Below are positions 20,611-57,933 of a stretch of 64,000 bases of DNA, piece by piece. Positions within the stretch are counted from its first letter, which is position 1; every line of letters begins with the position of its first letter. The position numbers and the translations under genes are program-made. The notes below the pieces were generated by a model. That model did no database searches. It was not told the origin of the DNA and saw only the letters and a list, made by a program, of their open reading frames with translations. Source of the stretch: a virus. Lineage: Duplodnaviria > Caudoviricetes. The DNA is taken from IMG/VR virus record IMGVR_UViG_3300014204_000120, positions 1 through 64,000 of that record; one strand, 5' to 3'.

Positions 20611-20671
20611 TTTTGAAAAAGTATTAAAATTGATAAAGTATAGTAATTTTCTTTAATATAAATAAAAATAT

Positions 20672-21928
20672 ATGAAAGTACAACGAACCGAAAGACATAT
20701 AATTGTTAAAAATAAATCCTTTGATGAAATTACGTTTTTATCAAAGAACCTATATAATTATTGTAATTATATTCTTCGTCATGTTTATTTTAATAAATTT
20801 GATGAAATACCCGAATATAAACATCTTATTAAATCCTTCAAAATTAAAGATAAAGAATTCTTTAATATTGATCAATATGATCTAATATCAGAACTAACGA
20901 AAAATAATCAAGTAGATTATAGAAAATTACCATCACAAGTAGCTCAACAGATAATTTTGTTATTGTATAAAAATTGGAAAGTGTTTTATAAATCTTTAAA
21001 AGTATTAAGTAAATTAAATGGTAAACCTAAAATGCCTAATTATAAAGATAAAGGAGGTAGAAATGTTGTAATCTTTACGAATCAACAGTGTCGTTTAAAG
21101 TCAGATGGGATGATATATTTTCCTAAAAGCACCAATATTCAGCCGTTGAGTACGAAAGTTAAATCGTTTAATCAGGTTAGGATAGTACCTCAAGCAACGT
21201 GTTATGTTGTAGAAGTAGTATATGAGAAAGAGATCGAAGTTTGTAAGGATTTAAATGATTTATTATATTTAGGAATTGATTTGGGTGTAGATAATTTGGC
21301 TACATGTGTAGATAATATAGGCAATAAACCTTTTATTATAAATGGCAAGATTATTAAATCTATAAATCAATTTTTTAATAAACAGAAATCTGTTCTTCAG
21401 TCTTATATTGGTAATAAAGGAACATCTAATAGAATTAATTCTTTAACGCACAAGAGGAATAATAAAGTTCAAGATTATCTTCATAAGACAAGTAGATACA
21501 TAATTAATTATTGTATTAATAATAAGATTAAAACAATAGTTATAGGTCATAATAATGATTGGAAAAATGAAGTAAATATGTCTAAAAGGAATAATCAGAA
21601 TTTTGTTTATATTCCATTTGCAACATTAATACAGCAAATCCAATATAAAGCAGAAGAAGTTGGAATCTCTGTAATTGAAATGAACGAATCTTATACCTCT
21701 AAATGTGATTCTTTGGCTTTAGAAGAAATTAAAAAACACGAATTTTATATTGGTAAAAGAATAAAAAGGGGTTTATTTCAATCATCTATTGGTAAATTAA
21801 TTAATGCTGATGTAAACGGTGCTTTAAATATTTTAAGAAAAGTAATCCAAGATGGTTTTGTAAAAGACCTATTGGATAAAGGTAATGTGTTTTTGCCAAA
21901 TAGGATTAATCCTATTAAAGTTACCTAA
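20672..21928 (+). mobile_element. tnpB: IS200/IS605-family TnpB RNA-guided nuclease, no tnpA
   Basis: SKNLYNY, LGIDLGVDNLA (RuvC-I), IVIGHN..WK, ESYTSK, NADVNGALNI (RuvC-III). Confidence 0.9.
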
Positions 21929-21939
21929 TAATTTTAACA
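21838..21939 (+). ncRNA. Putative TnpB omega-RNA scaffold overlapping the tnpB 3' end
   Basis: Position typical of omega-RNAs; successive hairpins ending in TTAACA; covarying copy at 57326. Confidence 0.65.
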
Positions 21940-21961
21940 ATTTTTTAATGGAGAACATAAC

Positions 21962-22846
21962 ATGAAAATGGAAGATGTGAAAGATGGTGAATTGAAATCG
22001 TTAGAAAGTAAGCCAGTTAGAGAAACTCGTGATGTACAGAGTGATGAGCAATTAGTTGGAATGGTACAAGCAATGAAACAAAAAGCACCATTGCAACAAG
22101 AAGCTATTGGTGAAAATTCAAATTATTGGGAAATTACAGGATTGCCTTCAAAAATGAGGTTTTATGATCCTGTTATGAAGATTTTAGGAAGGCCATTAAA
22201 GGTTCCGGAAGTTAAGAAAATATCTTCTATGAATGAAGATAATGGTGATTTTGTTTTAAATGATATTGTTAGGAAGGCTACAAAGAACATTAATTGTGAT
22301 GAATTATATGTTGCAGATAAACTTTTTATTATTTTTTGGTTAAGAGCAAATACATATAGAGATAGTGGTTTTATAGTCAATTATACTTGTATGAATAAAG
22401 AATGTGGTAAAAAGATAACGCATCATTTTGAAGTTGATGATTTAGATGTGACGTATATTTCTGATAGTTTTGATCCTAATAAGGAGTTTACATTGCTTAG
22501 TGGGATTAAAATAAAATATGATTATTTAAGAGTTAAGGATGAAATTTTTATTGAGAAGTTTAGGGAGATTAATTCTGAAGCTATTGGTGAAGTTGATAGT
22601 GAGTTGTTATCAATGGCTCAAATGATTAAAACTATTAATGGAGTTGAAAAGACTTTATTGCAAAAGTATCATTGGATGATTGAAGCTGATCCTAATGATT
22701 TTGCATATTTAAAAAGTTATATAGAAAAGAATGGTATGGGAATAAAGCCTTATATTAATGTGAAGTGCGAGCATTGTGGAGGAACAACCCCAGTGGGGAT
22801 ATCCTTTCGCGCAGACTTCTTTATTCCCGATTATAAGTTTGAATGA
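21962..22846 (+). CDS. Baseplate hub assembly protein, T4 gp26-like
   Basis: LPSKMRFY, D..FI.FWLRA..Y, CxxxxC and CEHCG, ends DFFIP. Confidence 0.7.
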   Translation: MKMEDVKDGELKSLESKPVRETRDVQSDEQLVGMVQAMKQKAPLQQEAIGENSNYWEITGLPSKMRFYDPVMKILGRPLKVPEVKKISSMNEDNGDFVLNDIVRKATKNINCDELYVADKLFIIFWLRANTYRDSGFIVNYTCMNKECGKKITHHFEVDDLDVTYISDSFDPNKEFTLLSGIKIKYDYLRVKDEIFIEKFREINSEAIGEVDSELLSMAQMIKTINGVEKTLLQKYHWMIEADPNDFAYLKSYIEKNGMGIKPYINVKCEHCGGTTPVGISFRADFFIPDYKFE

Positions 22847-55641: not shown

Positions 55642-57303
55642 ATGCTAGAATTTGCAACTTATTTGAAAGAGACTTTCAATCAGGATGTATCAAAAGCAGA
55701 AGATATAATTAAAGAGAAGTGGAACAAAGTAAAGGCTATTATGAAAGAAGCTTTTGATGGTCCTTATGCTGACAAACAAACAGCATTAAATCGTATACAA
55801 AACGATTTTATTGATAAGACTATTGCTCCTTCAACTATTGATGTAGATTTTTTAAAAAATAATATGGAATATGTAGTTGAAAAGATTAATGCATTGGATG
55901 AAGGTGATATTAAAATTATCATCAACAACGATACAAATAAAAGCGGTAAAGGCGGAATGGCAGAACCAACAGTTACTACAATACCTTCAGTAACACCAAT
56001 CTATACGACAGATGATGAAACTGATATAGATATGGAAACTGAATCTGCTAAGGCTAAAAAGAAAGGTAAGAAAGGCAAGAAAGCCGAAAAGGAAGAGGAA
56101 GAGGAATTAGAAGAAAAGGCAGAGAAACCAGAAGTTCCTGAAGTAACAGACGAACCAGAAGAAACTCCCGAAGTAACTCCTGATGAAGTGATACCGGATA
56201 CGGAACCAGAAGAAACTCCTGAAGAAAAACCAGAAGAAACTGTAGACGAACCAACAGATATAGAAGCCAAAAAACTAACTATCACTGTTGTAGATAATAA
56301 AGTAACAGTTGATCCAGAAAATGAAGATACTGGTTTAGAACATAAAGATTATGAATTTGAATCACCAACACAGGCACAAAAATTCGCCGACTCACTAAAA
56401 CAATTTTTTGGCGAACAAGGATTTGAACTAACTGATAATTCAGAAGAAACTCCCGAAGAAACACCAGAAGAAAAACCTGAAGGTGAAGAAACACCAGAAG
56501 AAAAACCTGAAGGCGAAGAAACTGAAGACGATGTTATTAGTTGGGAAGATGTAGAAGATGAGGAAGTTCCAGATGAAGAAGACGATGAAGATGTTGGTGA
56601 ATCTATTGATATTAATAAATTAGTAGGTAAATTGGTTCGTGTTGGCGATAAATGGTATAATGTAACAAGTATTGCAGAATCTAAATTAGTTTGTGTTGAT
56701 AAAGATGGTAATGAAAGTAAATTTGGTTTAACAGAAGTTGAAGAAGCTGAAGTTGATAAAGCTGAAGAAAAGAAAGAAGAAGACGAAGAAAAAGCTAAGA
56801 AAGAAAAAGAAGAAAAGGAAAAGAAAGAGAAAGAAGAAGCAGATAAGAAAGAAGCTGAAGAAAAAGAAGAAGCTGCTGAAAAAAAGGAAGATGAAAAAGA
56901 AGAAGTCGAAGAAGCATTATCTATAACTAAATTAGCTCGTAGATTTATGTTTGACGATGATGATACTGTAGACGAATCTGAAACACCTAAAATGCCTTCA
57001 GTAGATAAAGCTTTTACTAAAACAAAAGAACCTTCAGCGGCTTTAACTGCTACTCCTAAAAAGCCTAATGAAAAGTTGGAGAAAACTAATAAACCTGAAA
57101 CTATGTCTAAAAAAGCTCCTTCCGCAGCTTTAACTGCTAAACCTTCTAAACCTAAAGAAAAGGTAGAAACTGTTAAGACTCCTAAGGTAGAAAAGAAAGC
57201 TCCACCTAAAGGTAATTTAACAGCTAAACCAGCTAAACCTAATGAGAAAATTGAAACTGTTAAAGCTCCTTCATTTGACGCAGAATATAATAAAAAGCTT
57301 TAA
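55642..57303 (+). CDS. Acidic low-complexity putative head core/internal protein
   Basis: MLEFATYLKE start; EETPEEKPE repeats; three C-terminal P...LTA.P.KP.EK.E repeats. Confidence 0.7.
   Translation: MLEFATYLKETFNQDVSKAEDIIKEKWNKVKAIMKEAFDGPYADKQTALNRIQNDFIDKTIAPSTIDVDFLKNNMEYVVEKINALDEGDIKIIINNDTNKSGKGGMAEPTVTTIPSVTPIYTTDDETDIDMETESAKAKKKGKKGKKAEKEEEEELEEKAEKPEVPEVTDEPEETPEVTPDEVIPDTEPEETPEEKPEETVDEPTDIEAKKLTITVVDNKVTVDPENEDTGLEHKDYEFESPTQAQKFADSLKQFFGEQGFELTDNSEETPEETPEEKPEGEETPEEKPEGEETEDDVISWEDVEDEEVPDEEDDEDVGESIDINKLVGKLVRVGDKWYNVTSIAESKLVCVDKDGNESKFGLTEVEEAEVDKAEEKKEEDEEKAKKEKEEKEKKEKEEADKKEAEEKEEAAEKKEDEKEEVEEALSITKLARRFMFDDDDTVDESETPKMPSVDKAFTKTKEPSAALTATPKKPNEKLEKTNKPETMSKKAPSAALTAKPSKPKEKVETVKTPKVEKKAPPKGNLTAKPAKPNEKIETVKAPSFDAEYNKKL
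56455..56522 (+). repeat. 30-bp coding tandem repeat (EETPEEKPEG)
   Basis: GAAGAAACACCAGAAGAAAAACCTGAAGG(T/C) twice plus a partial copy. Confidence 0.85.
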
Positions 57304-57325
57304 ATTAGAGTTGAATACATTTAAA

Positions 57326-57440
57326 AAAAGTAATCCAAGATGGTTTTGTAAAACGCCTATTGGATAGAGGTTCTGTGTTTGAGCCGTATAAAATCAATTT
57401 GATTTTATTAAAAAATTCTAATTAAATAGAATTTATAACA
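57326..57440 (+). ncRNA. Orphan copy of the TnpB omega-RNA scaffold
   Basis: About 60 nt nearly identical to 21838-21897 with compensatory changes, then two structurally equivalent hairpins and TAACA; no tnpB nearby. Confidence 0.7.
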
Positions 57441-57477
57441 TAACATAAGAAACAGTAATCACTAATGTAGTCAACTT

Positions 57478-57516
57478 AAAAAGTCTATCATTTAATTTTG
57501 ATAGGCTTTTTGTTTT
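57478..57516 (+). terminator. Rho-independent terminator
   Basis: AAGTCTATCA / TGATAGGCTT stem plus T-tract, followed by late promoter 57517. Confidence 0.75.
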
Positions 57517-57543
57517 TATAAATACTATGTAAGGAATATACTT

Positions 57544-57933
57544 ATGCATTTTAAAGACTTTTATTTATTACAAGAAAAGAAGTTTTTAACAATATCTAAT
57601 CAAAAAATTGAAATAGATATTGAAAACTTAGACTTATATAGTACAAGTCATTCAGATCAACAAATGAATCGACTTGATAATTATAAACGAATGAATATTA
57701 CAGAAGATGAAATTATTAAAGACTTAGAAAAAGCATTACCTAAAATAATGAATGATTATGCTAACGGTGAAATAGAAAATGAAGCTGAATTTTTAGTTAA
57801 GAATAAAGAAACTAAGTTAAACATTATTGGTGCTCTTAAAATGCGTAAAGGCAAGGACTTTATATCTATCATTACAGTTATGAGAAAACCTGGTTATATT
57901 CCTAAAGATGGTACGTATACTTATGAGATATAA
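57544..57933 (+). CDS. Putative internal protein
   Basis: MHFKDFYLLQE start; IITVMRK C-terminal motif. Confidence 0.6.
   Translation: MHFKDFYLLQEKKFLTISNQKIEIDIENLDLYSTSHSDQQMNRLDNYKRMNITEDEIIKDLEKALPKIMNDYANGEIENEAEFLVKNKETKLNIIGALKMRKGKDFISIITVMRKPGYIPKDGTYTYEI

Follow-up and report, generated by a model that had tools for sequence, protein, structure and literature searches.

Stand-alone omega-RNAs are known from the OMEGA (TnpB/IscB) systems (Altae-Tran et al. 2021, in the summary given by PMC10691335); mobilised forms exist beside loci that contain an effector and work in trans (PMC10691335, PNAS 2023), and little is documented on how they originate or what role they play in viruses. 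PATEs whose omega-RNAs depend on TnpB supplied in trans are also on record (Meers et al., bioRxiv 10.1101/2023.03.14.532601), and a 2026 review has a category for transposon homing into co-infecting phages (PMC13565253). The locus described here is a clear example of the already published stand-alone omega-RNA, to which it adds population evidence for the origin and the likely target of such an RNA. It lies in a window of 64,000 nucleotides at the start of an IMG/VR phage contig of 137.8 kb (about half complete); all window features annotated below are on the + strand. The contig contains one tnpB and, about 35 kb away from it, one orphan, a second copy of the tnpB 3′ end that stands on its own.

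Judged by its sequence, the orphan is a stand-alone omega-RNA in the published sense: a scaffold is joined to a flank-derived guide, neither an effector nor a transposase is adjacent, a related effector is encoded elsewhere in the genome, and the orphan has evidently been mobilised, as the presence/absence polymorphism among sister phages and the further orphans in two related records (G001 and G002) indicate. Unlike the published cases, it is found in a T4-like phage, promoterless in the 3′ UTR of a late gene, with an action in trans that is here predicted only; it also keeps the C-terminal frame of TnpB open, and its junctions suggest break repair over transposition. With PATEs it has in common that it is a short, protein-less derivative whose omega-RNA would depend on the TnpB of another element, but PATEs have left- and right-end palindromes and are moved by TnpA, whereas the orphan has no recognisable left end and its edge lies inside the tnpB ORF. 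As in ISDra2 and ISGst TnpB (PMC8612924; Meers et al.), the scaffold and the tnpB 3′ end overlap, DNA past the right end would serve as the guide, and the putative target is the allele without the element, beside a candidate TAM; unlike those elements, the orphan belongs to another sequence and structure family (without an Rfam match), the RuvC-II motif of the resident TnpB is rearranged, and the likely arena of homing is that of co-infecting phages ("non-restorative homing", PMC13565253) and not that of sister chromosomes. The proposed cutting of a relative's allele, followed by co-conversion of the cassette and its markers, recalls the free-standing homing endonucleases SegF, SegB and Mob of T-even phages (PMC13565253), except that specificity would here come from an RNA guide and that the nuclease gene is 35 kb away.

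DNA nearly identical to the window was found in landfill (2018–2022) and groundwater (2022) metagenomes. The resident tnpB (20672–21928, 418 aa, PF01385 and PF07282) is surrounded by T4-like tail-tube and baseplate-hub genes and is the sole full tnpB match in the 137.8-kb contig. Its relatives at no more than 66% identity number in the thousands, many of them on large viral contigs, and in the "phages" collection the region of tnpB gave only distant TnpB matches. The RuvC residues D203 (IDLG) and D380 (NADVNGA) of the resident TnpB are canonical and conserved. The canonical RuvC-II glutamate is absent: residues 289–298 read IVIGHNNDWK (VIGYNKxWK in the family), and the whole clade shares this absence together with an invariant glutamate within ESYTSK; this residue, E339, is a likely candidate for its replacement. 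A triad of D203, E339 and D380 was initially taken as canonical and was dropped after an alignment to PDB structures and comparison with PMC10691335, which describes rearranged RuvC clades, some of them virus-specific, that it predicts to be active. [quoted passage not shown] The omega-RNA scaffold of the resident element (21821–21963) takes in the final 36 codons of tnpB together with the right end, and finishes in AACATAACAT. Its putative guide (21964–21983), placed by homology with the right-end boundary ..AACGT|G that was mapped at many insertion sites, spans the first codons of the baseplate-hub gene, the ATG of which consists of the AT of the right end and the following G; no second target of this guide was found in the 137.8-kb contig.

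The orphan first stood out as a repeat shared by the tnpB 3′ end and an intergenic gap. This repeat is genuine: the 24-mer GTAATCCAAGATGGTTTTGTAAAA is exact at 21842 and at 57330 only, with none expected by chance, and blastn aligns 57320–57398 with 21832–21910 at 84% identity over 79 nt. A covariance model (R1), built from an alignment (A4) of the 3′ ends of the resident element and of 13 related viral tnpB genes, with the orphan left out, found the orphan over the whole length of the model (57310–57447, 67.9 bits, E ~1e-7); in the window and in the 137.8-kb contig its only other match was the resident copy (21821–21964, 93.5 bits), so that the covariance-model scan proposed in the sequence-only reading bears out its assignment. 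The orphan scaffold (57322–57446) comprises hairpins at 57333–57365, 57369–57385, 57388–57408 and 57413–57434 and a tail, ATAACATAACAT. The resident and orphan copies fold into the same series of four hairpins (z-scores −2.7 and −3.3), both finish in tandem AACATAACAT, the common end that had been noticed from the sequence, and the single-stranded motifs AAAAGUA, GAU, AUAGAGG, GUGUU and AUAACAU are preserved in the orphan. In the wider family, near-identical elements of one group (L039) occupy many different sites and their similarity ends at ..TTTTAATAACGT(G), which places the right ends by homology at ..AACATAACAT|G (21963/4) for the resident copy and ..AACATAACAT|A (57446/7) for the orphan, in agreement with the R1 alignment. 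From these comparisons, the orphan is an omega-RNA scaffold derived from a tnpB 3′ end and a transposon right end.

Base pairing in the family is best documented in hairpins 1 and 2. RNAalifold on A4 returned two hairpins with changes on both sides in 13 of the 17 pairs, and in a 17-sequence alignment, which was fitted to the model, 94.8% of cells were paired and 14 of 17 pairs covaried; none of 500 shuffles attained the observed score, and every slid control was far lower. The resident scaffold thereby has covariation support across the family for these two hairpins. The change from GGTAA/TTGCC in the resident copy to GGTTC/GAGCC in the orphan is a true double compensatory change, as had been claimed. 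The further claim that the next hairpins keep their pairing stands insofar as both copies fold four hairpins, but hairpins 3 and 4 are single-sequence folds without covariation support, whose register varies among relatives, and the orphan has lost one pair in the inner stem of hairpin 1 (GAC to CGC). No Rfam family reached its gathering score in the window, 57200–57600 had no match in the "phages" collection, and the neighbouring 553-aa and 129-aa ORFs had no Pfam or PHROG match to TnpB. With its scaffold, flank-derived guide and terminator, and with exactly one tnpB in the genome, the orphan is rightly described as an omega-RNA that lacks an adjacent tnpB.

Where the differences between the two copies arose is suggested by the reading frame of the orphan. 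In the frame of tnpB, which has a codon beginning at 57330, the orphan reads through 57315–57425 (about 36 codons) without a stop, and its translation ..LKKVIQDGFVKRLLDRGSVFEPYKINLILLKNSN* (which includes ..KKVIQDGFVKRLLDRGSVFEPYKIN..) aligns with the C-termini of TnpB proteins. It carries the family-consensus residues DRG and PYK.N, which the resident TnpB lacks, and it differs from the resident by synonymous changes (CCA/CCG, ATT/ATC) and conservative R/K swaps. A phmmer search of this 36-aa pseudo-C-terminus against 1.8 billion proteins gave one spurious match. By these features the orphan is the last ~36 codons and the right end of a second, diverged TnpB element of the IS1341/IS605 type. 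An open frame with a family-typical TnpB tail indicates that the compensatory changes most likely predate orphaning and accrued in an intact second tnpB, and consequently the compensatory pairs noticed in the sequence-only reading are not evidence of selection on the orphan. Identity to the resident copy is about 90% over the first ~65 nt of the orphan and about 50% over the remainder, a mosaic that would fit gene conversion between copies.

The orphan lies in the 3′ UTR of a 553-aa late-gene ORF (55642–57303), and empty sites do exist in related phages: sister contigs in three landfill runs from three studies (X5, X7 and X9) skip it. The contig from X7 (471 nt, of which 316 and 155 nt flank the joint) joins 57295 to 57454, and that from X9 joins 57297 to 57478; the 23 diverged letters of the latter correspond to 57456–57477 in its own version. 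The X5 contig joins 57286 to 57445, a skip of 158 nt in which 4 letters fit either side and of which the joint is flagged "between: not known". X7 and X9 read GAATAT-AATAAAAAG-TAATCAC, with the gene ending in EYNKK*, an end shared by P0122, a sister protein of 87% identity, whereas X5 reads GAATAT-AAGAAACAG-TAATCAC and ends in EYKKQ*. The window reads GAATAT-AATAAAAAG-(57298–57446)-AAGAAACAG-TAATCAC. Two natural allelic forms of one 9-mer thus flank the insert, the left copy (57289–57297, just after GAATAT) being the allele of X7, X9 and P0122. The insert that the sisters lack measures 149 nt (57298–57446), or 158 nt if parsed as 57289–57446, and adds a leucine and a new stop to the gene (EYNKK* to EYNKKL*). 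The 14-bp intrinsic terminator of the 553-aa gene (57477–57512), already noticed from the sequence, starts 30 nt past the scaffold and is native, since it is present in the sisters; beyond it, a box resembling T4 late promoters (TATAAATA, 57517–57524) would serve the next gene (57544).

The sister contigs without the orphan show it to be a discrete insertion, placed after the stop codon of the 553-aa gene and before its terminator; the sequence-only reading located it rightly, at 57326–57460, but gave it too small an extent. The sisters share variants that the window does not have, for example at 57246, and the NKK type occurs in the most diverged of them, which argues that the empty site is ancestral. 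Alternatively, both empty alleles could be microhomology deletions (at ATAA or AG) of an ancestral filled allele. The possibility that the orphan is the remnant of a second tnpB recently deleted at this place does not agree with the empty sites of the sisters, and it is correct to the extent that the orphan descends from a second tnpB lineage. Neither the sisters nor a donor were found by protein search or by exact and degenerate DNA patterns in viral, metagenome and genome collections, in which entries close to the window may be missing by design. The locus thus provides natural before-and-after alleles in wild phage populations.

The edges of the insert bear on how it arrived. Its right boundary coincides with the end of the scaffold, and its left edge is a patchwork (57297–57321): GCTTTAAAT (57297–57305) equals tnpB codons 384–386 (21821–21829), and colinearity returns after 13 extra nt with two in-frame stops. 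A 13-mer in this stretch, AGTTGAATACATT (57309–57321), is an inverted copy (12/13) of the native flank at 57464–57476, a quality of match that occurs about twice in the window, both strands counted; this 13-mer is also similar to the start of the left end in a distant subgroup of elements (L069, L075, L076, L078 and L080). The left junction is a near-palindrome, and no transposon left end was found at the orphan, the left edge of which is inside the tnpB ORF. The flank arm at 57464–57476 would pair with 57309–57321, and the resulting closing stem would enclose both the scaffold and a guide of 17 nt; this stem appears in the MFE and centroid folds of 57290–57520 (z −4.6) and is absent from folds of the G001 orphan and of the resident copy. 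ISDra2-type TnpB cuts about 15–21 nt from the TAM, so that the flank at 57464–57476 falls in the cutting zone. The right boundary at the scaffold end, the left boundary within the ORF, the filler copied from the flank and the 9-mer in two alleles together suggest that the orphan most likely arrived by repair of a double-strand break or by partial homing, and not by TnpA transposition. A donor phage would have carried a full element at ATAT| of the X5-type allele, and the donor TnpB would have cut a relative; repair synthesis from the right flank would then have run about 150 nt through the right end, copying only the part proximal to that end, before the nascent strand was joined to the other end of the break by microhomology. 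An alternative is a clean 158-nt insertion of the IS605 type, 3′ of ATAT in an X5-type site. An origin by deletion between direct repeats of the left end and the 3′ end was also considered and was dropped on the evidence of the sister joints.

If the scaffold ends where the R1 alignment places it, the guide would be AAGAAACAGTAATCACTAAT (57447–57466), which refines the earlier placement near ATAACATAAGAAACAGTAATC; its first 9 nt are the right, X5-type copy of the target 9-mer. The guide exactly equals the empty allele of X5, GAATAT|AAGAAACAGTAATCAC, and matches the commoner empty allele (X7, X9 and P0122) at 18 of 20 positions, with TAM-proximal mismatches at positions 3 and 7; it has no other target in the 137.8-kb contig. 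Past the left ATAT, the carrier agrees with the guide for 9 nt and then departs from it, and would thereby be self-immune; ACAT stands before the guide's own copy. A search for targets beside a TAM has thus yielded an exact match in a natural allele, together with a guess at the TAM itself: WTAT (ATAT/TTAT) is a candidate that fits the flanks of the L039 group, the orphans of G002 and the AAATAT|ATG before the resident tnpB, for which the predicted empty allele would read ..ATAT|GAAAATGG. A TTGAT-like reading fits other flanks; TTGAT and AAAAG had been the first guesses for the TAM and were dropped on the sister joints.

No sigma-70-like promoter or terminator was found between the 553-aa ORF and the orphan, so that the orphan would be the 3′ UTR of a late mRNA ending at 57512. 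A search for RNA runs with the locus returned none, and X11, possibly an RNA run, gave short, unrelated-looking pieces only. According to PMC10278001, TnpB processes the mRNA that encodes it into omega-RNA, and a transcript that stops at the native terminator could likewise be trimmed to the scaffold and a guide of ~17–20 nt. The resident TnpB would load this RNA in trans and cut the uninterrupted allele (..ATAT followed by AAGAAACAGTAATCAC..) in co-infecting sisters, and repair with the carrier genome as template would transfer the insert together with markers close by, as in a guide-only homing or kin-competition element. Like the route of origin and the TAM, the transcription, processing, binding by the resident TnpB and cleavage assumed here are inferred. 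Both the homing of TnpB elements between co-infecting phages and the birth of guide-only elements are directly testable at this locus.

The records that hold the two closest viral TnpBs also contain orphans. In G001, one tnpB is accompanied by one orphan that is nearly identical to its own tnpB 3′ end, from AAAAGTAATCC to GATAACAT. In G002, a 102-kb phage record, one tnpB is accompanied by two orphans (L101 1620–1745 and L105 1630–1755, both on the − strand), which have in common a 125-nt AT-rich leader unrelated to tnpB and ending in TTTTTTATAAAAAG, and which occupy different sites, after ..TTAT| and ..ATAT|; leader and scaffold together could be a mobile unit of promoter plus scaffold. Three complete records of a more distant subgroup have a tnpB of its own for each R1 match. 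By sequence comparison, orphans that begin at the same scaffold position are a recurrent feature of the clade of the resident TnpB.

That the orphan is a stand-alone omega-RNA gene, born of break repair and guiding the resident TnpB in trans against the allele of the sisters, is a serious possibility that falls just short of an even chance. It is favoured by an intact and family-typical scaffold, by a guide equal to the X5 empty allele in the presence of sisters without the insert, by the common starting position of the orphans in related records and by the published stand-alone omega-RNAs that act in trans; a function with the resident TnpB is plausible. Against such use in trans speak the 3′ half of the scaffold, which is strongly unlike that of the resident, the broken pair in hairpin 1 and the missing canonical RuvC-II glutamate; against the guide reading speak also the two TAM-proximal mismatches to the commoner empty allele, the single copy in the contig and the flagged joint of X5. 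The same origin could instead have left an inert scar: a 3′ fragment, copied or retained from a second tnpB element, whose RNA the resident TnpB does not use and which would have survived solely on account of its youth and its harmless position in a 3′ UTR. An open, family-like frame points to descent from another intact tnpB, which already accounts for the compensatory differences; the single copy lacks a promoter, a scaffold pair is lost in a piece whose 3′ module has diverged from the resident's, the patchwork 5′ edge is what sloppy repair would leave, and phages without the insert coexist in the same habitats; a scar is thus quite possible, if somewhat less than an even proposition. Against a scar, the retained piece spans the whole scaffold model and stops a little 5′ of it, like the independent orphans in G001 and G002; its guide is still exact to a natural empty allele, and the overall fold is very stable (z −4.6). 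A present-day function of the orphan is close to evenly balanced. A bolder form of such a function, a working guide-only gene drive with a late-gene transcript, excision aided by the 13-nt arm and a distant TnpB that cuts a second locus of the sisters, is rather unlikely; if it is true, homing between phages, triggered by TnpB, would have left its natural footprint in the 9-mer of two alleles and in the filler.

Two further explanations compete with these. A non-autonomous IS200/IS605 mini-element like a PATE or MITE, with a left and a right end and moved in trans by a TnpA of the host, would explain the X5 parse, in which a clean 158-nt insertion lies directly 3′ of ATAT without target duplication, as in IS605; the resemblance of AGTTGAATACATT to the left-end start of the distant subgroup and the mobilised appearance of the G002 orphans with their common leader point the same way. 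But the 13-mer can equally be read as the local flank copied in inverted orientation, the insert begins with 9 nt that equal internal tnpB codons, no tnpA was seen in the neighbourhood of tnpB, and the X5 parse requires the element to start by chance with the X7-type target 9-mer. The minimal non-autonomous element also offered in the sequence-only reading is therefore, for want of a left end, very unlikely. The position in a 3′ UTR, the strong fold and the closing stem to the native flank would equally suit transposon debris co-opted as a cis-acting stabiliser or attenuator of the 553-aa mRNA, with no link to TnpB; since the sisters express this gene without the insert and every conserved feature is of the TnpB-scaffold type, such a role is exceedingly improbable.

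Several minor observations concern the surroundings of the orphan and of related elements. A 17-nt inverted repeat (88% complementary) connects 57516–57532, in the late-promoter region of the next gene, with 57422–57438, in hairpin 4 and the tail of the orphan, and may be a chance product of AT-richness. One X5 contig tracks the orphan as far as position 57423 of the window and then continues into unrelated sequence (TTAATACAGGTGTAAG...); it may stem from a different site, occupied by a related element or by the donor lineage. At the resident element, the ATG of tnpB (window 20611–20674) comes after AAATAT, without a Shine-Dalgarno sequence and 8 nt 3′ of an TATAAATA box (20657–20664), and the same layout is found in L038 (1460–1503); the resident element may perhaps have no left end and borrow the late promoter of the gene that it interrupted.

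The right ends of the clade (window 21940–21970; L014, the L039 group and L101) finish in ..(GGAG/AGGAAG)..AUAAC(G/A)U, usually followed by G; this creates an ATG or GTG with which, in many independent insertions, the phage gene downstream starts. For the baseplate-hub gene (21962), both the RBS GGAG and the ATG are supplied by the resident element. Elements of this clade thus sit at exact gene starts, where the displaced gene receives a new RBS and start codon. In L011, with a tnpB of 63% identity, the first ~23 nt of the downstream gene, ATGATAGATAAAACTGATTATGG, recur in diverged form, ATGGAAGATAAAATTGATTATGG, just 5′ of tnpB (1455–1503 and 2735–2765), so that the target is present twice in two allelic forms, like the 9-mer around the orphan.
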